Shown here one piece after another: positions 617 to 54,192 of a stretch of 64,000 nt of DNA (positions within the stretch are counted from its first letter, which is position 1; each line of letters begins with the position of its first letter). Both the position numbers and the translations under genes were made by a program. The notes under the pieces were generated by a model, which was given only the letters and a program-made list of their open reading frames with translations, was not told where the DNA came from and made no database searches. This stretch comes from Minisyncoccota bacterium (GTDB taxonomy: Bacteria > Patescibacteriota > Minisyncoccia > Phycocordibacterales > UBA6065): assembly GCA_035546035.1 (NCBI GenBank), contig DASZXC010000003.1, positions 479-64,478 of the forward strand. The letters are read 5' to 3'.

Positions 617-689
617 GCGCGTATAGCTCAGTTGGTAGAGCACATCACTGATACTGATGGGGTCCTAGGTTCAAATCCTAGTACGCGCA
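617..689 (+). tRNA. tRNA-Ile (anticodon GAT)
   Basis: Cloverleaf folded by hand: acceptor stem GCGCGTA/TACGCGC, D-arm GCTC-AGTTGGTA-GAGC, anticodon stem CATCA/TGATG with loop CTGATAC (anticodon GAT), T-arm CTAGG-TTCAAAT-CCTAG, discriminator A. No CCA is encoded. Confidence 0.9.
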
Positions 690-693
690 CAGC

Positions 694-725
694 GAAAGGA
701 ACCGACATGGTCGGTTTTTCCTTTC
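694..725 (+). terminator. Rho-independent terminator after the tRNA (aaccgac-atg-gtcggtt followed by a T-run)
   Basis: Hairpin plus TTTTT directly downstream of the tRNA. Confidence 0.55.
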
Positions 726-752
726 CGAAATTAGACTTAAATCCACACAACC

Positions 753-2165
753 TTGAACAAGAAGACCAAGATCGTCTGCACTATCGGACCGGCTACCGAA
801 TCCCAGCCGCAGCTCGAAAAGCTCCTCCGGGCGGGCATGAACGTCATGCGCCTCAACTTCTCGCACGGCGACTTCAGCGAGCATGGCAACCGCGTGAAGA
901 ATCTCAAGAAGGCGATAGAGGAGACCGGCATCCCTGCGGCGATCCTTCAGGACCTCGGCGGCCCGAAGATCCGTATCGGCACGTTCAAGACCGAGTCGGT
1001 CATGCTCAAGGAAGGCGCCAAGTTCACGCTCACGACCGACAAGGTCGAAGGCGACGAGGCGCGCGTATCGGTGAACTATCCTAATTTCGCGAAAGAGGTC
1101 AAGAAGGGTCATATCGTCTTCCTCCATGACGGCAGGAAGAAGCTCGAAGTCCTCGAGGTGAAGGGCAATAGCGTCGTCTGCAAGATCCTCGTCGGCGGCG
1201 AGATCAAGGGCAAGCGCGGCGTGAATCTCCCCGATTCCGACCTCACCATCTCGTCCCTCACTCCGAAGGACCTCGCCGACCTCGAATTCGGCATCAAGAA
1301 CAAGGTCGATTTCATGGCGCTCTCGTTCGTGCGCCGCGCGTCCGATATCACCGAACTCCGCGACATCCTCAAGGCCAAGAAATCCAAGGCCAAGATCATA
1401 GCCAAGATCGAGACTCCGCAGGCCCTCGCGTGCATAGACGAGATCATCGCGCTCGCTGACGGTATCATGGTCGCCCGCGGAGACCTTGCCATCGAGATCC
1501 CCGCAGAGAAAGTCCCTGCGGCCCAGAAGATGCTCATCAGGAAGTGCAACGAGGCGGGCAAGCCGGTCATCACCGCGACCCAGATGCTCGAATCGATGAT
1601 CAAGGCGCCGGTCCCTACGCGCGCAGAGGTCTCCGACGTCGCGAACGCCATTATAGACGGTACCGACGCTATCATGCTCTCCGAAGAGACGACGCTCGGC
1701 GACTATCCCGTACAGGCCGTCGAAGTCATGAATAAGGTCGCTCTCCAGGCGGAGGCGGGCATGGTCAAGAAGCAGCTCCTGGAGACCGTTCCCGGCGTCC
1801 TCTACGCTTCCGGCGAGTCGATCACGGCTTCGGCGGTGAAGCTCGCCGACAGGGTCGGCGCGAAGTTCCTGGTCTCGTTCACCGAGAGCGGCAAGAGCGC
1901 CCGATCCATGTCGCGCCATAAGCCCGACCAGCATATCGTCGTATTCACGCCGAACGAGCTCACGTTCCGCCAGTCCATATTGTCGTGGGCGACGATGCCG
2001 GTCCTCGTGAAGCGCACGACCGATTTCAACGAGGTCGCCAAGATGGTTCGCGACCATTTCCTGAAGTCCAAGCTCGCCAAGAAGGGAGACAAGGTCGTCA
2101 TCGCGTCCGCTCTGCCGTTCGGCGCGGGCACCGAGACGAACATGCTCCTCATAGAGACTTTGTAG
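753..2165 (+). CDS. pyk: Pyruvate kinase (TTG start)
   Basis: 470 aa: N-terminal KIVCTIGPA...MNVMRLNFSHG, MVARGDLGIEIP, and the PK C-terminal domain. Full-length and unambiguous. Confidence 0.95.
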   Translation: MNKKTKIVCTIGPATESQPQLEKLLRAGMNVMRLNFSHGDFSEHGNRVKNLKKAIEETGIPAAILQDLGGPKIRIGTFKTESVMLKEGAKFTLTTDKVEGDEARVSVNYPNFAKEVKKGHIVFLHDGRKKLEVLEVKGNSVVCKILVGGEIKGKRGVNLPDSDLTISSLTPKDLADLEFGIKNKVDFMALSFVRRASDITELRDILKAKKSKAKIIAKIETPQALACIDEIIALADGIMVARGDLAIEIPAEKVPAAQKMLIRKCNEAGKPVITATQMLESMIKAPVPTRAEVSDVANAIIDGTDAIMLSEETTLGDYPVQAVEVMNKVALQAEAGMVKKQLLETVPGVLYASGESITASAVKLADRVGAKFLVSFTESGKSARSMSRHKPDQHIVVFTPNELTFRQSILSWATMPVLVKRTTDFNEVAKMVRDHFLKSKLAKKGDKVVIASALPFGAGTETNMLLIETL

Positions 2166-2182
2166 TCTGCGATTTACAGGCA

Positions 2183-2240
2183 AATAAAAAGACTCCGTAA
2201 CGTCCCGCCAGGCCCTGGGACGTTACGGAGTCTTTTTATT
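2183..2240. terminator. Bidirectional intrinsic terminator / palindromic element (16-bp perfect stem gactccgtaacgtccc..gggacgttacggagtc flanked by A-run and T-run)
   Basis: Perfect inverted repeat with flanking aaataaaaa / tttttattt, sitting between the convergent pyk (+) and PLP-enzyme (-) genes. It shares a 21-nt core with the element at 3374-3446. Confidence 0.8.
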
Positions 2241-3135
2241 TGCCTGTGACGATACAAACTACAGAACCTCTAAAATGAGCGCCTTTGTTTATGGCACGGA
2301 TGAGTCCCGCGAGGCCGAGCGCGCCGTTGGCGGTCGCGGCGATGCCCTCTTTTTTCAAAAGCGCTATGGCACGCGCGATATCGGCATTCGATACGATCCA
2401 GCCTGTGCCACCAGTTCCTTTAATCGCTTCGACGACCGCTCCTTTGCGGTTAACGGCCTTGTCTACGATCGCGTCGGCGAGAGATATCTCGGGCTCGCTT
2501 TCCTCGGCAGAGAATTCGCGGGCGAGAGGGGAGTTGCCGGATGTCTGGACGATATGGACCTGCGGCACCGGCCCGGCGCCGTCCTTATCGTCTTTTTGCC
2601 AGCGCTCGATGAAATGCTTTGCCAATGCTTCCGCCGTCGTGCCTGACGACGTTCCTATGAATACGGCCGACAGACCGGGCGTCGCATCCATTTCCATGGC
2701 GAGCTCGGTATATCCAACGAGGGCGGCGTCGTCGGTAGACTGGCGAAGGCTTTCCTTGCCCCCGCCCTGGATCAGGCGGAACAGGGCCTGGAGCGGGCGA
2801 GGGGTCTCTTCTATGGTGATAGCGGGATCTTTGATCTCGTCCATGAGGGCCTTTCGCTTGGCTGGATTCATCTTTTCCCCGACGAGGATCGAAAGCGTCA
2901 GGCCGTCGCCGTTTACATTGCGCTCCTGGATGTGGCGCACCGCGGCGAGCGCGGCATTGCCCGACGACGATATGGCGAAATCTTTTTTGCCTTCGGCGAT
3001 CTTCAGGTCTATCATCACTGGTATCGAGCGGCCCTTGTGCGAGCCGTACGGATGGAGGTCTTCGCGCTTGAAATAGAGCCTGTCGAGGCCCAGTTCTTTG
3101 GCTATCTCCGGAGCTTCTGTCTGTGGAGTCTTCAC
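2236..3135 (-). CDS. Fold-type II PLP-dependent enzyme (ACC deaminase/D-cysteine desulfhydrase-like or threonine-synthase-like)
   Basis: 299 aa with motif FKREDLHPYGSHKGR (KREDL plus a lysine in SHKGR resembling the KRDDL...GGNKxRK signature) and a Gly-rich TSSGTTAEA loop. Substrate not assignable. Confidence 0.55.
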   Translation of the reverse strand: MKTPQTEAPEIAKELGLDRLYFKREDLHPYGSHKGRSIPVMIDLKIAEGKKDFAISSSGNAALAAVRHIQERNVNGDGLTLSILVGEKMNPAKRKALMDEIKDPAITIEETPRPLQALFRLIQGGGKESLRQSTDDAALVGYTELAMEMDATPGLSAVFIGTSSGTTAEALAKHFIERWQKDDKDGAGPVPQVHIVQTSGNSPLAREFSAEESEPEISLADAIVDKAVNRKGAVVEAIKGTGGTGWIVSNADIARAIALLKKEGIAATANGALGLAGLIRAINKGAHFRGSVVCIVTGK

Positions 3136-3210
3136 GTTCCTATACTAGCCTTTTTGCAGTACTATATAAAGCGTTTCGCGATTTAACCCGGCTTAAACAA
3201 AACAATCCGT

Positions 3211-3375
3211 ATGAAATGCGTCTGCCCTGAATGCAAGAACGATATCGATATGTCGCGGTATCCGCAGGTAGCCCAAAAGCACGTGATCGAGTGCGACAGA
3301 TGCGGAATAGTGCTCGAGGTCACGAATATTATGAACGGCGTCGTAGAGACCGAGATAGTAGACGAAGGCAAGTAA
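3211..3375 (+). CDS. Small zinc-ribbon protein with LysW/ArgW-like architecture (54 aa), absent from the ORF track
   Basis: ATG at 3211, translation MKCVCPECKNDIDMSRYPQVAQKHVIECDRCGIVLEVTNIMNGVVETEIVDEGK, stop TAA 3373-3375. The CPEC...CDRCG spacing and an acidic C-terminus resemble the amino-group carrier protein LysW, but the C-terminus is DEGK rather than EDWGE. High GC3 codons; promoter-like TATATAA lies upstream. Confidence 0.4.
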   Translation: MKCVCPECKNDIDMSRYPQVAQKHVIECDRCGIVLEVTNIMNGVVETEIVDEGK

Positions 3376-3446
3376 TAAGCACTAAAAACACCCCATAATG
3401 TCCCGCCAGGCCCTGGGACGTCTTAGGGTTTTTTTAGTGCTTATTA
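3374..3446. terminator. Bidirectional intrinsic terminator / palindromic element, second copy of the GTCCCGCCAGGCCCTGGGACG core
   Basis: Outer arms ataagcactaaaaa / tttttttagtgcttat. Inner core gtcccgccaggccctgggacg (3400-3420) is identical to 2202-2222. Lies between the convergent LysW-like ORF (+) and the Mur ligase (-). Confidence 0.7.
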
Positions 3447-4910
3447 TTTTCCTGCAAGGGCCTTTACCGTTTCCTCTATCATTCCACGGAATCCGTGCGA
3501 GCCGAGGAATGCTATGGCATCGCCTTCGCCCCTCGCGCGCGCGAGGAATTTCACGAGCTCCGCGTCGTCGTCTATATAATGGACGTCTTTGTGCGACTCT
3601 TTGACGAGAGCGGCGAGCTCTTCTCCTTCGAATGTCTTTTCAGGATCGGTCGGATCAGCCTTCAATTTAGTGAGGCGCGGGATGACCACGGTATCGGCAT
3701 CCCTGAACGCATCTTTATATGAGGGCTTGGACTGCTCGGTACGGTTGCCGGTATTCGGCTCGTACACGGCGACGATGAGGCCCGGATATATAGAACGGAT
3801 GATGGCGAGCGCTGATCTGGCTTTCTCCGGAGAGTGGGCGATGTCGTCTATGACGGCGACCTCGTGCTCGTAGCGCTTTTCGAGGCGGCGCTTCATGCCC
3901 CTGAACGTCGCTATGGCGTCGGTGATGTCGCCCGGAGCGATGCCGATCTCTCGCGCCATGGCGAAACAACCGGTGATATTCTCGGCATTGTATCCGCCGA
4001 GGAGGGGCGATTTGATACCGTACGCTTTGCCGTGATAGACGATGTCGAATGCAATGCCCTCGTGCGAGCCTTTGACGTTCTCATAGCGATAGTCGGCTTT
4101 CTCGTCCTTGCCATAGCTCACGTATTCGCGCTTCAAGCCGGCAAGGAGCTTCGGCACCGCTTCCGTATCGGCGCATGCGACGATCAGCCCGTTCTTTTTG
4201 CCGCCTTTGCCGTCGGCTTTCGGCGCGGGAACCGACGCGACGAGCGCTTTGAACGCGTCGAGGTAGCTTTTCTCCGTAGGGTAGACGTCGGCATGATCCC
4301 ATTTGACGGCGGTGAGCATGAGATGCGTCGGCTTGTAGTGGGCGAACTTCGGGCGCTTGTCCCATTTCGCCGTCGTATATTCGTCGCCTTCGATGACCGA
4401 CCATTCGCCCGCATCTATCGCTGCCGATGCCGAATTGTCTTGGGTGACGCCGCCGACCATGTATGAAGGCTTCATATCGGCATGTTTCAAGATATGGGAG
4501 AGAAGCGCTGACGACGTCGTCTTGCCGTAGGTGCCGGTAACGACGATCGAATGAGGCTTGATAATATGCTCGCCCGCCGCTTCAGGGAAAGACATGAACG
4601 GGATACCATGCTCTTTCACGTACAAGAGCTCTGGATTCTTGGTCGAAATGGCGTTGCCCACGATGACGAGATCAGGCGCTCCACCCCCGACCATTTTTTC
4701 AGGATGAAAACCAGGATAATAGGGAATGCCGAGATCAGTGAGATTGGTCGAAACGGGCGGGAAGAAGCCGGAATCCGAGCCGGTCACTTTATAGCCCTTC
4801 TGCCAGAGAGCCGTCGCGACGGCGCTCATAGCCACGCCGCATATGCCGATGAAATGGACTTTCTGGGTCTTTTGGGCGGCACCTTTCTTATTCGTGATGG
4901 TATTTTTCAT
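3444..4910 (-). CDS. murC: Mur ligase family: UDP-N-acetylmuramate--L-alanine ligase (MurC) or Mpl-type ligase
   Basis: 488 aa: N-terminal HFIGICGVAMSAVATAL...VTGSD (MurC/Mpl hallmark), P-loop VVTGTYGKTT, Mur ligase middle and C domains. MurC versus Mpl cannot be resolved by eye. Confidence 0.75.
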   Translation of the reverse strand: MKNTITNKKGAAQKTQKVHFIGICGVAMSAVATALWQKGYKVTGSDSGFFPPVSTNLTDLGIPYYPGFHPEKMVGGGAPDLVIVGNAISTKNPELLYVKEHGIPFMSFPEAAGEHIIKPHSIVVTGTYGKTTSSALLSHILKHADMKPSYMVGGVTQDNSASAAIDAGEWSVIEGDEYTTAKWDKRPKFAHYKPTHLMLTAVKWDHADVYPTEKSYLDAFKALVASVPAPKADGKGGKKNGLIVACADTEAVPKLLAGLKREYVSYGKDEKADYRYENVKGSHEGIAFDIVYHGKAYGIKSPLLGGYNAENITGCFAMAREIGIAPGDITDAIATFRGMKRRLEKRYEHEVAVIDDIAHSPEKARSALAIIRSIYPGLIVAVYEPNTGNRTEQSKPSYKDAFRDADTVVIPRLTKLKADPTDPEKTFEGEELAALVKESHKDVHYIDDDAELVKFLARARGEGDAIAFLGSHGFRGMIEETVKALAGK

Positions 4911-5311: not shown

Positions 5312-5968
5312 TCATGGTTTAAGCAGTTCCTTGAGAGGCTCTATGTCCGTGCGCCATCTCTCGCCGTCGAACCATTCGCCGCCCTTGAACTGGAGCTTGT
5401 AGGTGTCGGTAGGGCGGGAGAGCGAGCCGAGATATACGTATCTCTTGTTGCATTCTTTGGCCTTCTGAAGGACCATGGTCATCATGCCGAGGCCGCGCGA
5501 CGGCTCGCGCGCGTCTTCGATGTAGAAAGGGAAGGCGTAGTGGAATATGTTCGCGCTGCGATATCCGATAACGAAGCCGATCTGCGAAGATCGGCGCGCG
5601 TCGCCGAATACGAGGAGCAGGTTGAAGTTGCTCTTGTCGGCGTCGGTGATGACCTCGCGCGCCTTGTTGGCGGTAAAGACGCTGTCGCCGAATTTCGCGT
5701 AGAAATCCTTGGCGAGCTTGCCGATCTGCCAGGAATAATCCTTGTAGGGCAGGGCCTCGGCCTCGAGGGCGAGATTTTCGGCTTTGCGGAGGATGCGCCG
5801 GTTCTCGCTCGAGAGTTCGAATCTGGAGAGATCGACGCGGAACGAGCGCGTCTGGTTCATGACGCCCTTGCCGACGCGCGTGAAGACATAGCCTTTATCG
5901 TACATCCGTTCGATGTTTTCGGGAGAAAGATCTGCTATGACCCGGCTGTCCCATGTGAGATATGACAT
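5312..5968 (-). CDS. Arginyl-tRNA--protein transferase / Bpt-like aminoacyl-tRNA-protein transferase family protein
   Basis: 218 aa: RSFRVDLSRFELSSENRRILRK (ATE_N-like signature) and RYVYLGS (ATE_C-like YLGY region). No Cys-rich N-terminal motif is present, so the assignment is tentative. Confidence 0.4.
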   Translation of the reverse strand: MSYLTWDSRVIADLSPENIERMYDKGYVFTRVGKGVMNQTRSFRVDLSRFELSSENRRILRKAENLALEAEALPYKDYSWQIGKLAKDFYAKFGDSVFTANKAREVITDADKSNFNLLLVFGDARRSSQIGFVIGYRSANIFHYAFPFYIEDAREPSRGLGMMTMVLQKAKECNKRYVYLGSLSRPTDTYKLQFKGGEWFDGERWRTDIEPLKELLKP

Positions 5969-5996: not shown

Positions 5997-7130
5997 CTAG
6001 TGAAGCCCTATCCAGACGCCGATGAGCACCATGCCGAGGTGCACGATCCACATGCGCATGATGACTTTTTCCTCGCTCCAGCCTTTCAATTCGAGGTGAT
6101 GATGCAAGGGCGCCATGCGGAATACGCGACGGCCGAATACGTGGCGACCGACGGATTGCACGAGTACGGTCGCAGCTTCGGCATAGAACATGAATGCGAT
6201 GAAGGGAAGTATGGCCATGCTGTTCACCGCCAATGCGTTGATGGCGAGCAATCCGCCGAGGCCGAGCGATCCGACGTCTCCCATCTGAAAGCGCGCAGGC
6301 TTTACGTTGAAATAAGTATAGGTGATGAGCGCTCCCACGGTTACCGCGTTCAGTATGGCGAGAGCGTCATAGCCCGCGATCCACGACAGGAATGCGAGCG
6401 CGCCGAATGTCGGGATGAGCATGCCTCCGGCCAAGCCGTCCATGCCGTCGGATACGTTCACGGCATTGGCGGTGAACATGACGACGAAGATGATGAGGGG
6501 AATAAGGAAGCCGTCGATCGAGACGAGCCCGTGAAAAGGGACGTATATGTCCCGCCACGCTTCGCCGAGCTTGTAATAGATCCACCAGACGGATACGGCG
6601 CCCGCGGCGAACTGGAGCAGGAGCTTTTCATGGACGAGGACGCCCGTACGCTGTTTGGATCCGAATATAGTCGTCGCGCGCTTGAAGACCGTCCAGGGCA
6701 GCGTGACGACGAGCCAGAGGCGGTAGAGGATGTTCTTGTGGACGCGTATGAGCGTCATCGTCTGCGACAGGCTCCTCTGGCGGCGGCCAGAGCCGAACGT
6801 ATTCAAAAGGTCGTCGAATGCGCCGAGAGCGGCGGACAAAAGCATGACGCCGACCGGTACCCACGTGTATCGGCGGTCCCAGTCAAAGAAATAGGCGAGC
6901 GCGGCGACCGTTACGATGACGAGGAGACCGCCCATGATCGGCGTATTCGCCTTTTCCGATCGGGATTCGAGGCCGAGCGTCTTGTCGCCTTCCGATTTGC
7001 GGACGATCCTCCCCCGGCGGAGGATCTTTATCAGAAACGGCGCCCATGCAAGGCTCGTCAGGCATGCTACGATGCCGAATCCGATGATGGTCGTAAGGCT
7101 ATGTATCTGAAGGGGGAGAAAGTCCGTCAT
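5997..7130 (-). CDS. mraY: Phospho-N-acetylmuramoyl-pentapeptide-transferase
   Basis: 377 aa polytopic membrane protein with NAVNVSDGMDGLAGG, MGDVGSLGLG and HHHLE motifs. The 494-aa antisense ORF 5913-7397 is rejected. Confidence 0.9.
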   Translation of the reverse strand: MTDFLPLQIHSLTTIIGFGIVACLTSLAWAPFLIKILRRGRIVRKSEGDKTLGLESRSEKANTPIMGGLLVIVTVAALAYFFDWDRRYTWVPVGVMLLSAALGAFDDLLNTFGSGRRQRSLSQTMTLIRVHKNILYRLWLVVTLPWTVFKRATTIFGSKQRTGVLVHEKLLLQFAAGAVSVWWIYYKLGEAWRDIYVPFHGLVSIDGFLIPLIIFVVMFTANAVNVSDGMDGLAGGMLIPTFGALAFLSWIAGYDALAILNAVTVGALITYTYFNVKPARFQMGDVGSLGLGGLLAINALAVNSMAILPFIAFMFYAEAATVLVQSVGRHVFGRRVFRMAPLHHHLELKGWSEEKVIMRMWIVHLGMVLIGVWIGLH

Positions 7131-7170: not shown

Positions 7171-7986
7171 TTAAGCCAGGAATACGAGCCGGCGTACCGA
7201 GACTTCTTTTGCCCCGCGGGCGCTTTCAAGCGTATAGTTTTCCGGACCCGTCGCTCCTTTCTCTTTCCAGACCCCTTTGCCGCGGGCGATGTCACCCATG
7301 GTCTCGCCGGCAGGGACGAATATGTCGCCTTCGCGTACGCCGTGATCGGTCGTGCCGTCGGAAGGCCATGCGTATGAGTGCGCATATGAAAGCCTGATAC
7401 CGTTCGACGATCGCTCGACTCCCGTGATGACGAGCATGTGGTTATAGAGTCCGTCCTTACCCGTGCCCATGAACGTGATTATATCGCCCGGGCGCGCGTC
7501 GCTGGCCGCGATCTCGGCGCTATTCCTTTCGTTTGCGAACGTCGCTACGCCCATGTTCTCGGCAGGACGGAGACGCGCTATGAGCGAGCCTATGAAGCCC
7601 GAGCGGTTCGATCGCACGAACGCCGAGATGTTTCTGCCGCGCTTTTCCTGGGCGACGGCATTCAATACATGGTATGCGAAACCGGAGCAGTCGACGCCGA
7701 GGTCATGGGCGACGAGGAATTCCTTTAGTTTATCCGTCGAAAGCGTCGCCACGTTCACGCGCGAGTGCTTCGCGTCTATGTCCGCCTCTTCGGCGATCTC
7801 TTCAGGCGAGCCTTTGCCTTTGAGGACGCGCAACTGGCTGCGCGTCTTATGGCGCTTATTATTGAAATATGGGCACGAAGGCTTGGTCCCCAAAGGAAGG
7901 GCGAGGTATGCGTCGATGACCGCTCGAGCCCTGCCTTCGAGCTTCTCGGTCTCCGGTTTCGTTATCTCTACGGCGTCTTGATGCAT
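7171..7986 (-). CDS. NlpC/P60-family papain-like cysteine peptidase/amidase (no signal peptide seen)
   Basis: 271 aa. GVDCSGFAYHV (catalytic Cys) and GDIITF...LYNHMLVI (catalytic His) match the NlpC/P60 pattern. Its start overlaps the upstream ATP-grasp stop by 19 nt, suggesting translational coupling. Confidence 0.5.
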   Translation of the reverse strand: MHQDAVEITKPETEKLEGRARAVIDAYLALPLGTKPSCPYFNNKRHKTRSQLRVLKGKGSPEEIAEEADIDAKHSRVNVATLSTDKLKEFLVAHDLGVDCSGFAYHVLNAVAQEKRGRNISAFVRSNRSGFIGSLIARLRPAENMGVATFANERNSAEIAASDARPGDIITFMGTGKDGLYNHMLVITGVERSSNGIRLSYAHSYAWPSDGTTDHGVREGDIFVPAGETMGDIARGKGVWKEKGATGPENYTLESARGAKEVSVRRLVFLA

Positions 7987-9203
7987 GATGCGATGAATCG
8001 TCCCAAATCGTTCAGCTGATCGTGGGCCTTCATTATACCCGTCTCTGACTGAATACGGAAAAGCTCTTTATTATGATCCGTGTTCTCGTATGCCATGACG
8101 GCGAGGCCCTGTCCGCGAAGCGCGTCGATATCGACCGATGCGGGAATCTCCGTGACGCGCTTAACGATCTGGGCGCCTGATATGAGAGGCAGCCTTTCAG
8201 GAAAAGGCATATCGAGAAGCGCTGCGATGTGGGCTTCGAATATCGTCGGGGCGTCTGCCCCGGTTTTTTTCTCGAGCGCGGATTCGAATACGGCCGATGC
8301 GGGCTGCCGGGCGTTTATCTCCAAAAGCGATACCTTGCCCGTAGCGGCGTCATATATAACGTCTATGCCGAAGAGGCCTTTCCAACCCTCGGATTCGAGC
8401 CGCGCCCCGATCTGTTTTGCCATGCCCGCGGTGCTTTTGAGCAGGCCTCTGAAAGAAGCGTCGGCCGCCAGGCTCCAGTCATTGCCTATGGTCGAGAAGG
8501 GAAGGTCGGTGAAAGGCTCGAGGCCCGTGATCTGGTAGCTCGGATTTCCCATGAGCGTGCCTTTTCCGACGACGACGTTCATCGTAAACACGGGTCCGTC
8601 CACGAAATCGGCGACGCGGCATTCGCGCCGGGGAAAATCGGCGCGGATCTTCTCCAGGTCTTTGTCCGACTCGATCACGTATGTGCCTTGGCCCGTATGC
8701 GAGTGATTGAACTGGAGGACGGATTTTTTGCCCGCGTACGCAACGTCCTTACAGAGCATGATCCGATGCGGAGGCAGGAGACCGGCGATGTCATCGAGCC
8801 ATCGGACCTGCGACACCTTTTCCTCGACTTCTTTTGCGAGCTCCGCGCTCGGGTTCAAAAGATTCCAGCCTTTCTCTTTCGCCAACCGCTCTATGCGCGC
8901 CGTGTTCTGGAATACCAGAACGTCCGCCCCGCGTTCGGCGATCGTTTTCTGTGTTTCAGGAAGAGAAAGGAGGTCGAACGTATCCAGAAGCTCGCCGGCA
9001 TCCGCGCCTTTTGCTAGCCGCACGTTCTCGGAGAATCTCTTCCGGACCTCGCGGCCGTACGGCGTATCGTTCGAAACGATGAAATAATTTCCGGCAGGCT
9101 CCATACCGAGCGCGCGCTCTATGTCGCGGGTCACGTAGACAAGCGGCTTTTTAAGGCTAATATGCATTAATGATAGTATACTTATCGCCGAAACTATGGC
9201 CAC
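7968..9203 (-). CDS. ATP-grasp family ligase (pre-ATP-grasp N-terminal domain plus ATP-grasp), unknown substrate
   Basis: 411 aa: SVLQFNHSHTGQGTYVIES, ECRVADFVDGPVFTMNVV, GIDVIYDAATGKVSLLEINARQP. The annotated start overlaps the divergent rsmI start by 8 nt, so the true start may be a downstream Met (MHISLKK). Confidence 0.6.
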   Translation of the reverse strand: MAIVSAISILSLMHISLKKPLVYVTRDIERALGMEPAGNYFIVSNDTPYGREVRKRFSENVRLAKGADAGELLDTFDLLSLPETQKTIAERGADVLVFQNTARIERLAKEKGWNLLNPSAELAKEVEEKVSQVRWLDDIAGLLPPHRIMLCKDVAYAGKKSVLQFNHSHTGQGTYVIESDKDLEKIRADFPRRECRVADFVDGPVFTMNVVVGKGTLMGNPSYQITGLEPFTDLPFSTIGNDWSLAADASFRGLLKSTAGMAKQIGARLESEGWKGLFGIDVIYDAATGKVSLLEINARQPASAVFESALEKKTGADAPTIFEAHIAALLDMPFPERLPLISGAQIVKRVTEIPASVDIDALRGQGLAVMAYENTDHNKELFRIQSETGIMKAHDQLNDLGRFIASCIKTP

Positions 9204-9861
9204 TCTCTATATAGTCGCGACGCCGATAGGGAATCTCGAGGACATCACGCTCCGCGCTTTGCGCGTGCTCAAGGAAGTCTCCGTCATATTCTGCGAAGAC
9301 ACCCGCACTTCGCGCGTGCTCCTCTCCAAATACGGCATCAAGGTTCCGACCGAAAGCTTCCACGCCCAGAGCTCGCCCGTAAAGACCGATCGCGTCATCG
9401 AGCTCCTCGAAGCGGGGAACGATATCGCTCTCGTCACCGACGCGGGTACGCCGGGCATATCCGATCCCGGCATGCTTTTGGTCTCTGAGGTCCGCGCCCG
9501 CCTGCCGGCGGCGAATATCGTCGCCATTCCTGGCCCGTCAGCCCTTGCCGCCGCGGTTTCCATCGCCGGAAAGCCTCTCCATGAGTTCGTCTTCCTCGGA
9601 TTCTTGCCTCATAAGAAGGGCAGGCAGACCCTGTTCGAAGAGATCAAGGCCGGAGAGCGCCCATACGTGTTCTACGAATCTCCGCACCGCATAGAGAAGA
9701 CGCTCGAAGCGCTGAAGGGAATGGAAAAGACCGTCACTATACTTCGCGAGATCACCAAGATGCACGAATCATACGTGTCCGGAACCGCCGAAGAGGTCTT
9801 GAAGGCGTTCAGAGACAATCCGGGAACGCTCCGCGGAGAATTCGTCGTCATCGTCAGCTAA
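9196..9861 (+). CDS. rsmI: 16S rRNA (cytidine1402-2'-O)-methyltransferase RsmI
   Basis: 221 aa, LYIVATPIGNLEDIT...IFCEDTRTS...tetrapyrrole-methylase fold motifs. Confidence 0.85.
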   Translation: MATLYIVATPIGNLEDITLRALRVLKEVSVIFCEDTRTSRVLLSKYGIKVPTESFHAQSSPVKTDRVIELLEAGNDIALVTDAGTPGISDPGMLLVSEVRARLPAANIVAIPGPSALAAAVSIAGKPLHEFVFLGFLPHKKGRQTLFEEIKAGERPYVFYESPHRIEKTLEALKGMEKTVTILREITKMHESYVSGTAEEVLKAFRDNPGTLRGEFVVIVS

Positions 9862-10071: not shown

Positions 10072-11313
10072 GTGTCAGGGAAGAACACCAAACAGAGCGT
10101 TCGAGCGTACAGGATAGGCGTCGGCCTATTCCTGCTTTTTATGTTCCTCGCCATTTTCCTCTATGCGGCCGGGCCGCTCTTCGAGCAGACGACCTATGAG
10201 AATAAGCCTGTCGAGGTCGCGACGACCACCGTACCCGTTCCGGTCGGCCGCCAGGCTACCCATGTGCCGACTCCGGAGCCGGTCAAAGGCATATATATGA
10301 CGTCGTGCGTCGCCGCGACGCCTTCGCTCCGCGTGAAGCTCGCCGACCTCATAGACGAGACCGAGCTCAACTCCGTCGTTATAGACATCAAGTCGTTCGA
10401 CGGGCATATCTCGTTCATGCCGGAGAATCCCGCGCTCAAAGACGCCGTCGGCGGATGCTATGTCAAAGACATGCAGGATTTCATCGACACGCTCCATGCG
10501 AAGGATATATATGTGATCGGCCGCGTCGCATCGTTCCAAGACCAGTACATGGTGGCGAAGCGTCCCGACCTCGCTGTCAAAAAAGAGAGCGCGACGTCTA
10601 CTGTCTGGCGCGACTATAAAGGCATCGCGTGGATAGACGCGTCGTCGGTCGAGCACTGGAAGTATCTCGTAGACATAGCGAAAGACGCCCATGCGATCGG
10701 TTTCGACGAGATAAACTTCGACTACATACGATTCCCGGCCGACGGCAATATGAAAGACATCTGGTATCCGCTGTCGGGGAAGAAAGACAAGAGCCAGGTC
10801 GTCAGGGGATTCTACGAATACCTCCATCACGAGCTCTCGCCGCTCGGCATCACCATATCGGGCGACCTCTTCGGCATGACGACGACCAATACCGACGACC
10901 TGAACATCGGGCAAATACTCGAATACGGATTGGCGAACTTCGATTACGTGATGCCGATGGTCTATCCGTCGCATTACCCGGACGGATTCTACGGGATCCC
11001 TGACCCGAACAAGGACGTCTACAAGGTCGTGAAGATCTCCATGGACAAGGCCGTCGCTCGCGCCGCCGCGACGACGACCCCGATCCTCACGGATACCCGT
11101 ATCGGTACCTCTACGCCCGCGGTCTATGCGAAGCCCGTATGGGACAGCAAGAAGCTCCGCCCGTGGCTTCAGGATAATAACTATCCGGTCACGTACACAG
11201 CTGAGATGGTGAGGGCGCAGATACAGGCCGACTACGATTCGAGCGCGACGAGCTGGTCGCTCTGGAATGCGGGGAACAAATATACGAGGGCGGCGCTCGA
11301 GCCGAAGCCGTGA
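10072..11313 (+). CDS. Membrane-anchored putative glycoside-hydrolase-like TIM-barrel protein (GHL/DUF4015-like)
   Basis: 413 aa with an N-terminal TM anchor. Motifs GIYMTSC, VVIDIKSFDG, GFDEINFDYIRFP, MPMVYPSHY recall the glycoside-hydrolase-like families. Assignment is from memory of the family patterns only. The antisense 458-aa ORF is rejected. Confidence 0.45.
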   Translation: MSGKNTKQSVRAYRIGVGLFLLFMFLAIFLYAAGPLFEQTTYENKPVEVATTTVPVPVGRQATHVPTPEPVKGIYMTSCVAATPSLRVKLADLIDETELNSVVIDIKSFDGHISFMPENPALKDAVGGCYVKDMQDFIDTLHAKDIYVIGRVASFQDQYMVAKRPDLAVKKESATSTVWRDYKGIAWIDASSVEHWKYLVDIAKDAHAIGFDEINFDYIRFPADGNMKDIWYPLSGKKDKSQVVRGFYEYLHHELSPLGITISGDLFGMTTTNTDDLNIGQILEYGLANFDYVMPMVYPSHYPDGFYGIPDPNKDVYKVVKISMDKAVARAAATTTPILTDTRIGTSTPAVYAKPVWDSKKLRPWLQDNNYPVTYTAEMVRAQIQADYDSSATSWSLWNAGNKYTRAALEPKP

Positions 11314-12148: not shown

Positions 12149-13993
12149 ATGATGGAAATGACCAGCGACGACAAAGTCACATACTTCGCCGAGACCGATG
12201 CCCGGAACAAGCGCGTCAAATTCGGGATCAAGGCAAAAGACCGCACCCGCCACGTCTATATCATCGGCAAGACGGGCATGGGCAAATCCACTCTCCTCGA
12301 GAATATGGCGGTGCAAGACATTCAGGGCGGGGAAGGCTGCTGCTTCATAGACCCTCACGGCAAGACCGCCGAGCTTCTCCTCAATTACGTTCCCGAAAAT
12401 CGCCTCAAGGACGTGCTCTATTTCGCGCCGTTCGACGTCGAGCACCCGATCGCGTTCAACGTCATGGAGGACGTCGGCTACGACAAGCGCCATCTCGTCG
12501 TATCCGGCCTCATGTCCACATTCAAAAAAATATGGGCCGATGCGTGGAGCGCCCGCATGGAATATATCCTCTCGAACACGCTTCTCGCGCTCCTCGAATA
12601 TCCAGGAGCGACGCTCTTGGGAGTGAACAAGATGCTCTCTGACAAGGACTATCGCAAAAAGGTCGTCGACAACATCAAAGATCCGGCGGTGAAGTCGTTC
12701 TGGGTGGACGAGTTCGCCAAATATACCGACAGGTTCGCCGCCGAAGCGACTCCGGCCATTCAGAACAAGATCGGCCAGTTCACGAATAACCCTCTCATCA
12801 GGAATATCATCGGCCAGCCGAAATCGTCGTTCGACCTTCGCAAGATGATGGACGACAGGAAGATTCTCATCGTGAACCTCTCGAAAGGCCGCGTGGGCGA
12901 ATCGAACGCCAATCTCCTCGGCGCTATGCTCATCACCAAGATATATCTCGCCGCGATGTCGCGCGCCGACGTCTCTGACAAGATAATGAAGACCCTGCCG
13001 AACTTCTACCTCTATGTGGACGAATTCCAGTCCTTCGCGAACGAGTCTTTCGCCGATATCCTCTCCGAGGCGCGAAAATACAAGCTGAACCTGACCATGG
13101 CGCATCAGTACATCGAGCAGATGTCCGAAGAAGTGCGCGCGGCGGTGTTCGGCAACGTCGGTACCATGATCGTGTTCCGGGTGGGCTCGTACGACGCAGA
13201 GGTCTTGGAGAAGGAATTCGCCCCGCAATTCACGGCTGAAGACATCGTGAACCTCGGCTTCGCGCAGATATATCTGCGGCTTATGATCGACGGGATAGGT
13301 TCGCAGCCGTTTTCGGCGACCACGCTGCCGCCGATACCCGAACCCGCCGTCACGTTCAAGGAGCAAGTCGTCCAGGGCTCGCGCGCCCAATTCACCCAAG
13401 TTCGTCCGGTCGTCGAAGAGCTCGTCCGCATGCAGACCTTGGGCGCGACGCCCGACAGGCCTCTCGCGACCATGAAGGCAGAGCCGCGCGACAGGACCAG
13501 CACGGCGGAAAGGGCTGACAGGCCGATGCCGCCGGCGCCTTCACCTATGCCGCCGCGCGAGCCGCGCAGGGAAGAGAGGCGTGACGATCGCCGCGAAGAT
13601 CGCAGAGACGACAGGCGCCTGCCGCAGGAGAATAATCGTCGCCACGAGACGCCGCCGATGGACGCGAGCGACGGATTTCATGGTTTCGACGCTATCAAGG
13701 CCATGGTCACGCCGCGTCCGCTTCAGAATAGCCAGAGCCAAGATCAGAAGCGCCCGAACGATCAGAGACCCGAAAAAAAGGGCGTGACCGAAGAGTCGCG
13801 AAACGACCTGCGTCAGGCACTCGCTTCTATAGCGAAGCCTCCGGCTGCTCCCAAAGAAGCGCCGAAGCAGGAGGCGAAGAAGGAAGCGGCTCCTCCGGCG
13901 CCTCCTGTCGCGCCGCGACCGCCTGAACTCAAGCATTCCGGACCGGCGAACGAGGTTCCGGAAGACGTCCTTAACAAACTCCTTGATATGTAA
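12149..13993 (+). CDS. P-loop ATPase of the VirD4/TraD/TraG type IV coupling-protein-like (DUF87/AAA-like) family, with an Arg/Asp/Glu/Pro-rich disordered C-terminal tail
   Basis: 614 aa: Walker A IIGKTGMGKST, Walker B YLYVDEFQSF, TraG-D_C-like LNLTMAHQYIEQ. No N-terminal TM segment. C-terminal ~170 aa are low-complexity (REPRREERRDDRREDRRDDRR...PPAPPVAPRPP). Confidence 0.55.
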   Translation: MMEMTSDDKVTYFAETDARNKRVKFGIKAKDRTRHVYIIGKTGMGKSTLLENMAVQDIQGGEGCCFIDPHGKTAELLLNYVPENRLKDVLYFAPFDVEHPIAFNVMEDVGYDKRHLVVSGLMSTFKKIWADAWSARMEYILSNTLLALLEYPGATLLGVNKMLSDKDYRKKVVDNIKDPAVKSFWVDEFAKYTDRFAAEATPAIQNKIGQFTNNPLIRNIIGQPKSSFDLRKMMDDRKILIVNLSKGRVGESNANLLGAMLITKIYLAAMSRADVSDKIMKTLPNFYLYVDEFQSFANESFADILSEARKYKLNLTMAHQYIEQMSEEVRAAVFGNVGTMIVFRVGSYDAEVLEKEFAPQFTAEDIVNLGFAQIYLRLMIDGIGSQPFSATTLPPIPEPAVTFKEQVVQGSRAQFTQVRPVVEELVRMQTLGATPDRPLATMKAEPRDRTSTAERADRPMPPAPSPMPPREPRREERRDDRREDRRDDRRLPQENNRRHETPPMDASDGFHGFDAIKAMVTPRPLQNSQSQDQKRPNDQRPEKKGVTEESRNDLRQALASIAKPPAAPKEAPKQEAKKEAAPPAPPVAPRPPELKHSGPANEVPEDVLNKLLDM

Positions 13994-31637: not shown

Positions 31638-32519
31638 TTATATGATCTTTTCTATCCTCTCCCTGATATCGGCTGCCGTGAGCTTCAGATATGCGTCTAT
31701 ATCGCCGACATTGCCGTATTTATGGATGAATTCGCGCGGTACGCCGATGTGGTGTACGCTCGGCGATTTCTTCGCCATCTCTGCCGATTTCGCTATGTCC
31801 CAATCGAGAGAGCCTTCATAGAAAGGCTCGCAGACGATCACCTTGTCTCCCGCGATATTCGTCGCCAGCGCATCTCGGTCGAAAGGCGCGACGGTCGTGT
31901 AATAGAGGATCGTCACGTCCAGTCCTTTGCAGGCTTCGCGCACGCTTTCGAGCATCGGCCCTACGGTCACGACCGTAGCTTTCAAGCCTTTTTGTACGAT
32001 CATGGCTTTGCCGAACTCTACGGGGAAGCTCTCTTTATTGCTTCGCTCGCTCAAGCGGAAGTATGTAGGCTTGCCGTCCGCATAGGTCGCCCTGAACAGC
32101 GAGTCGAATTCCGCAGGCGTTCCCGGTACGACGATCTCCATGTTCGGGACGTTCTTCAGTATGCCGACGTCGCCAGGGCAGTGATGGGTGCCTCCCATGA
32201 CCGCATAATCGTACGATCCGCCGATGCCTATGAAGTTGCCGCCGATATTCTGGTATCCGAAATCGTCTTTGATCTGTTCAAGCGAACGTTCGACTATGAA
32301 CGGGGCGATGGTGTGCACGACAGGGATCATGTCGTGGAGCGAGAGACCTGCGGCCAGGCTCACCGTCGATTGCTCGAGGATGCCGATATTGTAGACGCGG
32401 TCAGGATGCTCTTTGAAAGCGTTCCTGAACCCGAATACGCTTATGTCGCCCAAAAGCAGGACGAGGCGCGGGTCGGTCTTCAGTATATCTTCGACGGTCT
32501 TTACGAATTGTTTTCTCAT
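31638..32519 (-). CDS. Transketolase, C-terminal subunit (pyrimidine-binding + C-terminal domains)
   Basis: 293 aa; YNIGILEQSTVSLAAGLSL...HHCPGDVGIL...EIVVPGTP. Stop is adjacent to the N-terminal subunit gene. Confidence 0.85.
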   Translation of the reverse strand: MRKQFVKTVEDILKTDPRLVLLLGDISVFGFRNAFKEHPDRVYNIGILEQSTVSLAAGLSLHDMIPVVHTIAPFIVERSLEQIKDDFGYQNIGGNFIGIGGSYDYAVMGGTHHCPGDVGILKNVPNMEIVVPGTPAEFDSLFRATYADGKPTYFRLSERSNKESFPVEFGKAMIVQKGLKATVVTVGPMLESVREACKGLDVTILYYTTVAPFDRDALATNIAGDKVIVCEPFYEGSLDWDIAKSAEMAKKSPSVHHIGVPREFIHKYGNVGDIDAYLKLTAADIRERIEKII

Positions 32520-32521
32520 GG

Positions 32522-33280
32522 CTATATCAGTTCTTTAAGGAATGCTTCGAGCTCCTCGGGTTTCGGCGATTTGTGGTGCCATTCCGGATTGTGTTCCATG
32601 GACTTCACGCCCTTGCCTTTTATCGTGGCGGCGATGACGGCGATGGGCCTCTCGCTCTTTGCGGTCAACGCCTTATATATCGCCTCTTCATCGTGCCCGT
32701 CTATCGCTATGGTGTGCCAGCCGAATGATTTGAACTTCGCTTCTACGTCTCCGAGCACGAGCGAGCGGTCATTCGAGTGGTTGTAGTCGACGATGCAGCA
32801 GAGGTTGTCGAGCTTTTGGTGGGGCGCAAGGAGCGCGGATTCCCATACCGTACCCTCATTGCACTCGCCGTCGCCTATGATGGTATAGACCCGGCCCTTC
32901 TGCTTCCGTATCTTCATCGCCAGAGCGAGGCCGACTGCCATAGGGAAGCCATGGCCGAGCGAGCCCGTAGAGGTCTCTACTCCCGGAACTTTTGTCCGGT
33001 CCGGATGACCGCCGAGGATGCTGTCGAATCTTCCGAACGAATGGAGCGTCTCCTCGGTGATGAATCCTTTTTCCGCGAGGACGGCATAGAGGCCGATGGA
33101 AGCGTGGCCCTTCGAAAGCACGAATCGGTCGCGGTCAGGGTGCGATACGGTCTCGGGACTTATGTTAAGGACGCGGTCATAGAGGACCCAGAGTATCTCC
33201 AGGATCGAAAACGCCGTAGATATGTGGCCTTCTCCGGATTTGGTCGCTATTTCCAGTATCTTTCGTTTCAGATGCTTCAT
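32522..33280 (-). CDS. Transketolase, N-terminal subunit (TPP-binding)
   Basis: 252 aa; GHISTAFSILEIL, GSLGHGFPMAVGLALA, IIGDGECNEGTVWE, CIVDYN. Confidence 0.85.
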   Translation of the reverse strand: MKHLKRKILEIATKSGEGHISTAFSILEILWVLYDRVLNISPETVSHPDRDRFVLSKGHASIGLYAVLAEKGFITEETLHSFGRFDSILGGHPDRTKVPGVETSTGSLGHGFPMAVGLALAMKIRKQKGRVYTIIGDGECNEGTVWESALLAPHQKLDNLCCIVDYNHSNDRSLVLGDVEAKFKSFGWHTIAIDGHDEEAIYKALTAKSERPIAVIAATIKGKGVKSMEHNPEWHHKSPKPEELEAFLKELI

Positions 33281-39513: not shown

Positions 39514-40461
39514 TTATTGTATGTTCTTAAGGAATCTATCGAAGAAGACCTGGGTCGTATATTCTTTCACCGCTCTCCGGTACGCGTTCTCGATTATCGG
39601 CTTGTATGAATCATAGTTGGCGAGGATCTCCCGGACCGTTTCTTCGAGCTTGTCCGGTTCGTAATACACGAATTCTTTTCCGGGGGTGAAAAACTTCTCT
39701 ATGATATTGAATTCGTCTTTGCGGCAGAGGATGAGGGATTTGCCGAACGCCGCGTCGAATGTCCTGGATTTGATCTGGGGCACCATCGCCGTCTGCTTCT
39801 TGAACATGCCCCTGATGCTCCAGCGCGGTATGCCCGCATAGGCTTTGTTTTCCTTCCAGCCGCGCGTCCCGCGGACGCATCTTATCTCTTGGTCGCGGAG
39901 GAAGAGCAGGTTGTGGACGAGCGTGATCTTGGATTCGGATACAAGCTTGATCTTCTGGTCATAATCCGCGTTCGGATCGGTGGTAAGAGGGTAGTCTGCA
40001 GGGGCAACGAGGCGGTAATTGAATCTCGCTATCTCTTTCACGCTCTTCTCGATCTCGGGCGTATATTCGGTGAAGATGTGCCCGGCGTATATGATGTCGT
40101 ATTTCTTGTCGAACGTCTTCGGTATCTTGTTCTCGTTAAAAGGTATGAAAGAGAAGGCGCGCTTGTCGTTCTCGTATCTTTTATTGAGCCATTCGACGGT
40201 GTACGGGCATATGCTGAAGACTTTGTAGAGGAGGTCTTCGTATATCTCGTGCCTGAAGTCGCGGTTGTCGGTGAAGAACCTATTCGGCTCTTCGAATTCG
40301 AGATGCACGATCTTGTCGCCTTTGATGTCGAGAAGGCCGCGAAAATCCAAGAATCCTTCGATGAGCCAGAAATCTCCCGCCCTGCCGGCGAAGCGCGCGA
40401 AATCGAATGTCCTCGTGGCGTCGAATTTATACGTCTTTACGCGCTTGTTGAAGATTTTCAT
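39514..40461 (-). CDS. Hypothetical protein, possibly CgeB-like GT-B glycosyltransferase
   Basis: 315 aa; only the C-terminal KSRTFDAAFGKSLILC...FVYYEPDKLEETV resembles the GT1/CgeB-like C-terminal region. Confidence 0.3.
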   Translation of the reverse strand: MKIFNKRVKTYKFDATRTFDFARFAGRAGDFWLIEGFLDFRGLLDIKGDKIVHLEFEEPNRFFTDNRDFRHEIYEDLLYKVFSICPYTVEWLNKRYENDKRAFSFIPFNENKIPKTFDKKYDIIYAGHIFTEYTPEIEKSVKEIARFNYRLVAPADYPLTTDPNADYDQKIKLVSESKITLVHNLLFLRDQEIRCVRGTRGWKENKAYAGIPRWSIRGMFKKQTAMVPQIKSRTFDAAFGKSLILCRKDEFNIIEKFFTPGKEFVYYEPDKLEETVREILANYDSYKPIIENAYRRAVKEYTTQVFFDRFLKNIQ

Positions 40462-41714: not shown

Positions 41715-41726
41715 AGTCGATTGCGA

Positions 41727-53862: not shown

Positions 53863-54192
53863 ATGAAAATCATCCTCAGATTTTTGCTCGTTGCCGGTGC
53901 GATCATGGCTTTGCCGCATCTTGTCCCCGGCATCGCCGTCGCGGGCATATACCCGGCGCTTATCGCGGCCGCCATATTCGGTCTCTTGAATCTCGTCGTC
54001 AAACCGATCGTCGGCATCGTGACGCTGCCTATAAATATCGTCACCCTCGGCCTCTTCGGGCTCGTCGTGAACAGCCTCTTGCTCTGGTTCGTCGGCTCGT
54101 TCGTCGCCGGATTCTCAGTCGCCACGTTCACGGCCGCATTCGTCGGCGCCCTTATCCTGGCCGTCGTTAACTGGATTGCGCACCTCTTTTAA
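53863..54192 (+). CDS. Phage-holin-4_2-like 4-TM small membrane protein
   Basis: 109 aa; GLLNLVVKPIVGIVTLPINIVTLGLFGLVVNSLLLW matches the holin superfamily IV-like family that is widespread in non-phage contexts. Confidence 0.55.
   Translation: MKIILRFLLVAGAIMALPHLVPGIAVAGIYPALIAAAIFGLLNLVVKPIVGIVTLPINIVTLGLFGLVVNSLLLWFVGSFVAGFSVATFTAAFVGALILAVVNWIAHLF

Follow-up and report, generated by a model that had tools for sequence, protein, structure and literature searches.

A LysW-fold zinc-ribbon protein with a C-terminal lysine, encoded beside peptidoglycan genes across Patescibacteria: a possible carrier protein

Amino-group carrier proteins (AmCPs) of the LysW/ArgW kind occur in Thermus, Sulfolobus, and Thermococcus, and further AmCPs take part in the secondary metabolism of Streptomyces and Serratia. 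To our knowledge, carrier-protein amino-acid chemistry has been described from thermophiles, from archaea, and from a small number of antibiotic pathways, always with a terminal Glu and the enzymes LysX, LysZ, LysY, LysJ, and LysK. The conserved C-terminal tail of LysW is the covalent attachment site: the gamma-carboxyl of the terminal Glu holds the substrate (PMC8305020). Here we describe ZnR, a zinc-ribbon protein encoded on a stretch of 64,000 nucleotides from a patescibacterial genome (contig DASZXC010000003.1; the whole stretch is called the window). ZnR is clearly of LysW descent, yet its reactive terminus, the enzymes that accompany it, and its biological context all differ. In published full text, we found nothing that links LysW-like proteins to Patescibacteria, to the peptidoglycan of these bacteria, or to a module of the kind described here.

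3211..3375, + strand: ZnR, LysW-fold zinc-ribbon protein, 54 aa (translation, PF21344, alignment, structure model, pN/pS)

The translation of 3211-3375(+) is MKCVCPECKNDIDMSRYPQVAQKHVIECDRCGIVLEVTNIMNGVVETEIVDEGK followed by a stop codon, exactly the 54-aa open reading frame (ORF) that the initial annotation had read from the DNA. That annotation took the ORF to be unannotated, but NCBI holds an identical protein, the hypothetical protein VHE10_00495 of a Candidatus Paceibacterota metagenome-assembled genome. Like LysW and ArgW, ZnR is an acidic, four-Cys zinc ribbon of about 54 aa with a shared fold (TM 0.75): it has two CxxC knuckles (C5/C8 and C28/C31) and, counted from the sequence, 10 acidic versus 6 basic residues. 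The Pfam model PF21344 (Zn_ribbon_LysW) matches residues 5-40 with 30.9 bits against a gathering cutoff of 27 (E = 2e-7); 42 of 42 diverse ZnR relatives match it too (best E = 1.9e-13), and no rival family comes close. The best PDB sequence matches of the ZnR profile are LysW chains, 5k2m_E from Thermococcus (E = 5.6e-4) and 3wwl_A from Thermus. The AlphaFold (AF2) model has a predicted local distance difference test score (pLDDT) of 92, and its top five Foldseek matches in the PDB are all LysW (TM 0.70-0.75, root-mean-square deviation 1.3 A, 50 columns); PDB titles among the Foldseek matches include 'LysW-gamma-AAA' and 'LysW-gamma-aminoadipic semialdehyde'. The homology of the ZnR zinc ribbon to the globular domain of LysW is solid. 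The resemblance that had been noticed by eye is therefore true homology, and the fallback offered with it, that of an unrelated Zn-ribbon, is wrong. A role for ZnR as a DNA-binding regulator of the divergent gene was considered and rejected on its charge balance and its carrier-protein fold.

The C-terminal tail is the most conserved part of ZnR. The first search returned 28 close homologues (54-57 aa, 63-100% identity) and an additional one, P0020, a 75-aa copy with an apparently mis-called upstream start; all named homologues from this search are Patescibacteria. A profile search over 1.84 billion representatives gave 89 matches, and a relative of ZnR is carried by 167 species-representative GTDB genomes, all of them Patescibacteria. 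Invariant in the alignment of close homologues are the four Cys (C5, C8, C28, C31), P6, E7, K9, and N10, as well as the C-terminal EIVDEGK (28/28). A comparison of C-terminal residues had been suggested from the outset, and it finds Lys at the end throughout: in 28/28 close homologues, 89/89 orthologues, and 110/110 of the more distant relatives listed. TEIVDEGK is present in 71/89 orthologues, and an EEEK terminus marks 103/110 members of another subgroup, larger than the first and drawn from Dojkabacteria, Spechtbacteria, and further lineages of the candidate phyla radiation (CPR). K54 is kept in at least 90% of 42 diverse sequences (31-70% identity), and canonical LysW tails (DDFGE, EWEE) are confined to the weakest profile matches, P0107 and P0117. 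Judged from these alignments, ZnR founds a Patescibacteria-wide LysW-fold subfamily defined by an invariant C-terminal Lys, with a tail that reads [D/E]-E-G-K-COOH in Paceibacteria and E-E-E-K-COOH elsewhere.

The representative sequences also include proteins in which two or three LysW-like zinc ribbons stand in tandem (P0063, P0077, P0094, P0095, P0100, P0110), and one of these, P0063, likewise terminates in EEEK. Public names of ZnR relatives range over 'LysW', 'sulfonate ABC transporter', 'ribosomal protein S27E', and 'hypothetical'. The specific names among these are unsupported, and 'LysW' is contradicted by the tests given here.

ZnR is not itself a LysW/ArgW carrier for lysine or ornithine synthesis, the role suggested in the initial annotation, because it falls below the curated cutoffs, ends in Lys, is accompanied by a ligase that is not LysX, and has no LysZ/Y/J/K-type genes nearby. 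A LysW/ArgW profile check had been proposed, and its outcome is divided: the Pfam model is exceeded, but ZnR reaches 22.5 bits against a cutoff of 75 on NF041070 (LysW/ArgW) and 19.4 bits against 53.2 on TIGR01206 (lysW), and even the best of the 42 relatives on the curated LysW models (E = 5.9e-10) is far under cutoff. A proposed look for lysZ, lysY, lysJ, and lysK homologues found none: RimK, AA_kinase, Semialdhyde_dh, Aminotran_3, and Peptidase_M20 domains are absent from the 58 called genes of the 64 kb window, and no LysX/Z/Y/J/K-type domain is present among the called genes of the relative neighbourhoods inspected, which were annotated loci only. With LysW and ArgW, ZnR shares a strictly conserved tail and genetic coupling both to a hydrolase and to an ATP-grasp ligase. 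Unlike them, with their aromatic-Gly-Glu ending (EDWGE), it ends in Lys ([D/E]EGK, EEEK), with about 3 residues predicted to be free; its partners are a PALP enzyme and an NlpC/P60 amidase instead of LysZ/Y/J/K, and its ligase is not of the LysX/RimK type; it lies in a peptidoglycan gene context, it is found in Patescibacteria only, and it stays below the NCBIfam LysW cutoffs. Of the options first raised, a diverged carrier comes closest to these findings.

ZnR is a genuine gene under purifying selection. Across 51 distinct orthologous coding sequences, the ratio of nonsynonymous to synonymous variation (pN/pS) is 0.30 (pN 0.26, pS 0.85), and variability is greatest at third codon positions (0.53), followed by first (0.21) and second (0.16). 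Two further elements flank the gene.

3136..3210, no strand: intergenic region separating ZnR from the divergent PLP-enzyme gene, 75 bp, A+T-rich (sequence)
3374..3445, no strand: hairpin of 72 nt with a long perfect stem and U/A tracts on both sides (RNA fold)

We presume that the intergenic region is the shared promoter region of ZnR and the PLP-enzyme gene; its promoter role stays a presumption because a sigma-70 consensus scan of 3136..3210 gave no match inside the region. By inspection of the sequence, no obvious Shine-Dalgarno is seen upstream of the ZnR ATG. The hairpin lies directly 3' of the ZnR stop codon, between ZnR and the convergent murC-like gene. It folds at -35.3 kcal/mol (z = -7.5; 0/200 shuffles fold equally well), contains a terminator-like site at 3408-3431, and is probably a bidirectional terminator for the convergent ZnR and murC genes.

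In the window, ZnR stands among the following genes, which encode enzymes of pyridoxal 5'-phosphate (PLP) chemistry, amide ligation and hydrolysis, and the cell wall.

2236..3135, - strand: fold-type II (PALP) PLP enzyme, ThrC-like, distinct family (PF00291, 5e-32; profile against PDB)
3444..4910, - strand: MurC-like Mur ligase, convergent on ZnR (three Mur ligase domains)
5312..5968, - strand: ATE_C/Fem-like (GNAT-fold) putative aminoacyl-tRNA transferase, 218 aa (NCBIfam arginyltransferase models)
5997..7130, - strand: MraY, phospho-MurNAc-pentapeptide transferase (PF00953; TIGR00445, 2.7e-49)
7171..7986, - strand: NlpC/P60-type papain-like amidase, cytoplasmic (weak Pfam NLPC_P60/CHAP matches, invariant triad)
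7968..9203, - strand: ATP-grasp carboxylate-amine ligase, CPR-specific family (AF2 model, Foldseek, PF02655 on homologues)

To follow this arrangement across the phylum, we used 86 loci: 80 from a genome scan with the close-homologue alignment, and hence biased to the DEGK subgroup, and 6 from look-ups of encoding contigs; contexts of the EEEK subgroup come from seven look-ups. The PALP gene is the adjacent divergent neighbour of ZnR, with a gap below 200 bp, in 81/86 loci, and in 4 of the 5 remaining loci ZnR lies near a contig end. The murC gene is the convergent neighbour in 78/86 loci, and both counts hold even where the neighbouring proteins have only 42-50% identity. The PALP, ATP-grasp, and NlpC-like genes are all present in 39/41 loci with adequate flanks. 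In the window, the ATP-grasp and NlpC-like genes lie 3.8-5.8 kb downstream of the ZnR stop, beyond murC, rlmH, the fem-like gene, and mraY. Distant CPR classes have a rearranged order, with ZnR on the plus strand and, divergently, PALP, ATP-grasp, NlpC-like, and MraY genes; this order is found in L087 (a complete 1.04-Mb Dojkabacteria genome), L088, L089, L092, and a JGI contig, in all of which the next gene after PALP is that of the ATP-grasp enzyme. A single co-directional operon of L091 comprises ZnR, an ATE_C-like transferase, a Mur ligase, and the PALP enzyme, and its last three genes overlap. The ATP-grasp (N-terminal) and NlpC-like (C-terminal) proteins are one polypeptide of 634-774 aa in three loci (L045:14635-16539, L067:13045-15369, L087:4770-6989), and in the window the stop of the ATP-grasp gene and the start of the NlpC-like gene overlap by 19 nt (7968-7986). 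The mraY gene follows the NlpC-like gene in the window and in distant CPR lineages, and the peptidoglycan genes around the module comprise murC, mraY, and the fem-like gene, joined in relatives by murG, ftsW, or pgeF. The persistence of the linkage through rearrangement and the gene fusions speak for a functional tie beyond mere inherited synteny.

The ATP-grasp ligase lies 4.6 kb from ZnR, in line with the distance of about 4.5 kb given in the initial annotation, and its assignment to the ATP-grasp class is confirmed by AlphaFold and Foldseek. The AF2 model (pLDDT 94; the NCBI start gives 399 aa) is a full three-domain ATP-grasp whose closest structural matches are PurK, PurT, biotin carboxylase, GAR synthetase, and L-amino-acid ligase (Lal), at TM 0.6-0.66; no LysX/RimK chain is among the top 50 structural neighbours in the PDB. 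The suggested tie between this ligase and ZnR accordingly stands as far as linkage goes, since the gene sits in an operon divergent from ZnR in distant CPR lineages, but the enzyme is of the PurK/PurT/L-amino-acid-ligase type, not LysX. There are 898 homologues, and the named ones among 120 listed all come from CPR lineages; Pfam finds ATP-grasp_3 (PF02655) only, and the fold and motifs are intact. The NlpC-like protein has the invariant catalytic residues Cys100 (in GxDCSGF), His183, and His203, and a family-specific conserved N-terminal domain (PYFNN...GKGSP). No signal peptide is evident in its alignment.

The PALP gene starts 75 bp from ZnR on the other strand, which bears out the divergent PLP-dependent enzyme described at first. 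The enzyme retains GSHKGRS, with the Schiff-base Lys, as well as SSGN as its substrate-carboxylate loop and GTSSGTT as its phosphate loop. A profile search against the PDB places short ThrC closest (3e-21), followed by Ser/Thr dehydratases and Asp/Ser racemases, and cysteine-synthase-type enzymes align solely to the N-terminal half. The protein is below all ThrC equivalog cutoffs (59.2 versus 421 bits on NF004170, the best model, and 37.3 versus 167.1 on TIGR00260), and where ThrC has NSxNPxRxEGQK, the aligned region is an invariant LRQS(T)DD. The conserved loop implies that the substrate would have to offer a free alpha-amino acid moiety; the intact Lys, carboxylate loop, and phosphate loop together would favour tethering of an amino acid through its side chain. 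We also considered whether ZnR is the detached N-terminal ribbon of an archaeal-type ThrC-like enzyme; the alignment of the PALP ORF with ThrC models begins only at about position 74-80. The idea was dropped: solved short ThrCs align from residue ~30 and have no ribbon, the ZnR profile matches no ThrC or cysteate synthase PDB chain at E <= 10, and no ZnR-PALP fusion occurs among the 89 profile matches.

Beyond LysW, several described systems resemble parts of this module. The pairing of ligase and amidase parallels LysX/LysK and the ATP-grasp/CHAP glutathionylspermidine synthetase/amidase (GspSA), where an ATP-grasp ligase is coupled or fused to a Cys amidase of the CHAP/NlpC-P60 superfamily and the two activities form and cleave one and the same amide bond, at the C-terminus of a peptide. 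Unlike GspSA, the fused proteins here have the reverse domain order and no detectable sequence similarity to it; the substrate is presumably a protein tail and not glutathione, and a PLP enzyme is also involved. The CysO-CysM-Mec+ system of Mycobacterium likewise joins a fold-type II PLP enzyme to the C-terminus of a small carrier and a dedicated releasing hydrolase; unlike the ZnR module, it uses a beta-grasp protein, a Gly-Gly thiocarboxylate, an E1-like adenylase, and a JAMM protease, none of which is seen here. In the same way, sulfur carriers such as CysO, ThiS, and MoaD have the beta-grasp fold and a Gly-Gly end, and ZnR is a zinc ribbon with an EGK/EEEK tail. In Enterococcus and Lactococcus, Aslfm, by its described activity, is an ATP-grasp enzyme that joins a side-chain carboxylate to a Lys epsilon-amine, with aspartate racemase as a partner acting on the alpha-centre of the amino acid, again in a cell-wall context; there, however, Lys in the stem peptide of UDP-MurNAc-pentapeptide is the acceptor, without any carrier protein. 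RimK, too, is an ATP-grasp enzyme that modifies the acidic C-terminus of a small protein, ribosomal protein S6; it adds Glu to the alpha-carboxylate of a terminal Glu and belongs to the RimK/LysX clade, unlike the PurK/PurT/Lal-like ligase found with ZnR. NlpC/P60 enzymes canonically cleave gamma-D-glutamyl amide bonds.

We tentatively propose, at a confidence somewhat short of even, that ZnR serves peptidoglycan precursor metabolism as a carrier or scaffold, with the ATP-grasp ligase loading its C-terminal Lys and the amidase unloading it. The proposal draws on the covalent-carrier fold, the terminus as the most conserved part, the ligase-amidase fusion, and the free alpha end that the PLP enzyme would need; a fused ligase and hydrolase acting on one bond point to a logic of loading and unloading. 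The short protruding tail of ZnR would reach into three enzymes that are inherited together with it, at their active sites. The ATP-grasp ligase would form an amide at the terminal Lys, most likely between the Lys epsilon-amine and the side-chain carboxylate of an amino acid, because the alpha-amino and alpha-carboxyl groups would then stay free. The ThrC/racemase/dehydratase-like PLP enzyme might act on the tethered amino acid or on its cognate free form, and the NlpC/P60-type cysteine amidase would hydrolyse the bond and regenerate the carrier. Since the module lies within a peptidoglycan precursor cluster, the product would most likely be a cell-wall building block or modification. Loading, attachment site, substrate, and product are thus put forward here as inferred steps. 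A more specific version, distinctly unlikely in our estimate, makes ZnR a carrier of inverted polarity, with the side-chain carboxylate of the substrate held on the epsilon-amine of K54, and thereby a carrier-based way of making either a D-amino acid or some unusual diamino acid for CPR peptidoglycan. In that version, the ligase would join the gamma carboxylate of L-Glu or the beta carboxylate of L-Asp to K54, the PALP enzyme, with its racemase/dehydratase-like SSGN loop and Lys, would racemise or transform the free alpha-amino-acid end, and the amidase would free the product stereospecifically.

Several points weigh against a loaded carrier. Covalent loading of ZnR is purely what we infer. 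The structure model packs residues 44-51 as a beta-strand and leaves about 3 residues (EGK) free, so that the tether would be far shorter than that of LysW; only the last block of the model has lower confidence (mean pLDDT 71). The ATP-grasp enzyme is not LysX/RimK-like, neither it nor the amidase has a close characterised relative, and searches of the PDB with single sequences and profiles of both gave motif-level matches only (E >= 0.06). Locus L058 (1572-4280) has ZnR, murC, NlpC-like, and ATP-grasp genes and no local PALP gene, and L090, a Spechtbacteria contig, has no ATP-grasp gene within 8 kb. Since the entire block is a peptidoglycan cluster conserved within a single phylum, inherited synteny may account for part of the linkage, and the tightest neighbour of ZnR is the PALP enzyme, not the ligase. 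A different role, unlikely but of appreciable weight, would make ZnR a non-covalent accessory or regulatory subunit of the PLP enzyme, the amidase, or the ligase, bound through its acidic surface and never modified. Its E-x-K-COOH tail would then mimic the peptidoglycan stem end (gamma-D-Glu-L-Lys-COOH) as a pseudo-substrate or a product analogue, gating or inhibiting the NlpC/P60 amidase or activating the PLP enzyme. The tightest and most universal linkage is to the PALP gene, which either diverges from ZnR across one presumed promoter region or lies in one operon with it, the protruding tail is only about 3 residues long in the model, Glu-Lys termini are natural substrates in a peptidoglycan gene context, and a cytoplasmic NlpC/P60 enzyme with an intact triad plausibly needs control. 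However, the geometry of gamma-D-Glu-L-Lys is poorly matched by an alpha-linked L-Glu/Gly-L-Lys, the fusion of ligase and amidase speaks for the making and breaking of a bond, for which an acceptor is needed, and the LysW fold is known solely as a covalent carrier (PMC8305020).

The remaining explanations fare worse. It is improbable that ZnR is a single-turnover scaffold akin to graspetides, a group of peptides made on the ribosome and modified after translation (RiPPs), with an intramolecular lactam (omega-amide) made by the ATP-grasp enzyme between the K54 epsilon-amine and a conserved Asp or Glu side chain of the tail, or with a tail that is converted to a small molecule and severed by the NlpC/P60 peptidase. 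The invariant Lys and invariant acidic residues of the tail, faint or weak ATPgrasp_ST and ATPgrasp_YheCD matches among the ATP-grasp homologues, and a peptidase genetically coupled to the ATP-grasp gene are all features that such a scaffold would share, but ZnR has no leader/core architecture, is a housekeeping-like domain, folded and highly conserved, with one copy per genome that lies in a conserved cell-wall cluster instead of a variable biosynthetic island, and is predicted to be structured over residues 44-51, and the ligase is structurally PurK/PurT/Lal-like. A D-Ala-D-Ala ligase (Ddl) with the PALP enzyme as its racemase, a reading of the ligase itself, is not favoured either: Pfam and NCBIfam give no Ddl match, just one at 0.0034 to a pseudomurein ATP-grasp of archaea; the top 50 structural neighbours include no Ddl chain; and an amidase fusion would be unexpected for Ddl. 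As far as we know, Patescibacteria generally have no amino-acid biosynthesis, which counts against a true LysW/ArgW amino-group carrier for lysine or ornithine. Such a carrier is very improbable in spite of the homology and fold, the ATP-grasp gene nearby, and the sources that name relatives 'lysine biosynthesis protein LysW', given scores far under both curated cutoffs, a terminal Lys in place of the substrate-bearing Glu (PMC8305020), an ATP-grasp enzyme that is not LysX-like, and the absence of a RimK-type LysX, AA_kinase, semialdehyde dehydrogenase, class-III aminotransferase, or M20 peptidase from the window and the annotated neighbourhoods. Next to no weight falls on the idea that the ORF arose by chance or is some unrelated, generic zinc ribbon without a specific function: ZnR is short, it lacks an obvious Shine-Dalgarno, its codon score from a crude gene caller is a modest 7.5, and it has many weak matches to other Zn-ribbon families, but it is under purifying selection and recurs in 167 species genomes at fixed length and position, PF21344 is by far the top family in 42/42 members, and the fold prediction is confident. 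What probability these readings leave goes to something else.

The cell-wall genes next to ZnR have features of their own. The MurC-like protein scores 271.7 bits on TIGR01082 (murC; cutoff 335.1). The 218-aa protein at 5312-5968 matches NCBIfam arginyltransferase models at E = 5e-6, under cutoff; its orthologue in L091 (8210-8893) lies directly downstream of ZnR and has a weak PF04377 (ATE_C) match. This ATE_C/Bpt-like protein, with its weak similarity to arginyl/leucyl-tRNA-protein transferases, replaces the full-length FemAB of other CPR classes, and it may be a single-domain Fem-like aminoacyl-tRNA transferase that acts on a Lys epsilon-amine. In L058, the place of the adjacent PALP gene is taken by three co-directional ORFs (241, 125, and 439 aa), and in L090 a DUF1611 protein (3117-4253) follows murC where other lineages have fem-like and mraY genes. 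A Cu-oxidase_4 gene (YfiH/PgeF-type, of the 'peptidoglycan editing factor' family) lies directly downstream of ZnR on the same strand in L001 (8374-9156) and L087 (8193-9038), and in the latter, the Dojkabacteria genome, it starts 7 bp past the ZnR stop; it was not found beside ZnR in the window. A TP_methylase-family protein (9196-9861(+)) and a DUF4015 putative glycoside hydrolase (10072-11313(+)) are syntenic with the module across most Paceibacteria loci (45/86 and 29/86).

Farther along the window, a lone 614-aa coupling-protein ATPase of the TrwB/TraG/VirD4 type (type IV secretion-like; 12149-13993(+)) stands beside the cell-wall cluster. It is followed by a surface-glycan island of about 30 kb (14057-43475), unusually large for a reduced CPR genome, with at least 10 glycosyltransferases (GT1/GT2/GT4/GT8/GT11), about 8 methyltransferases (FkbM, MetW-like, and others), GtrA, PMT_2, two NAD epimerases/dehydratases, asparagine synthase, a split transketolase pair (31638-33280), and an ABC-2 exporter (40458-42551); a Wzy_C-TPR protein (43818-45995) lies past it. 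On the other side, the sole tRNA of the window, tRNA-Ile(GAT) at 617-690(+), is just upstream of a pyruvate kinase gene (753-2165(+); TIGR01064, 553 bits), and the antisense 501-aa ORF at 678-2183(-), which has no family match, is a shadow ORF and not a gene, as is typical at 56% G+C. A Phage_holin_4_2 membrane protein (53863-54192(+), E = 7e-29) is encoded between enolase and Obg, with no further phage genes nearby.

For annotation, the consequence is that the specific names now given to ZnR relatives are unsupported or, in the case of LysW, contradicted. At least 167 species-level genomes of Patescibacteria encode this subfamily, which has kept the LysW fold and has a Lys terminus, another enzyme set, and a place in a cell-wall cluster. 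CPR bacteria are largely uncultured and metabolically minimal; the proteins of the module are small and soluble, so the hypothesis is directly testable. If ZnR is a carrier, it would represent a new biosynthetic logic and a hitherto unknown step in the building or editing of CPR peptidoglycan.

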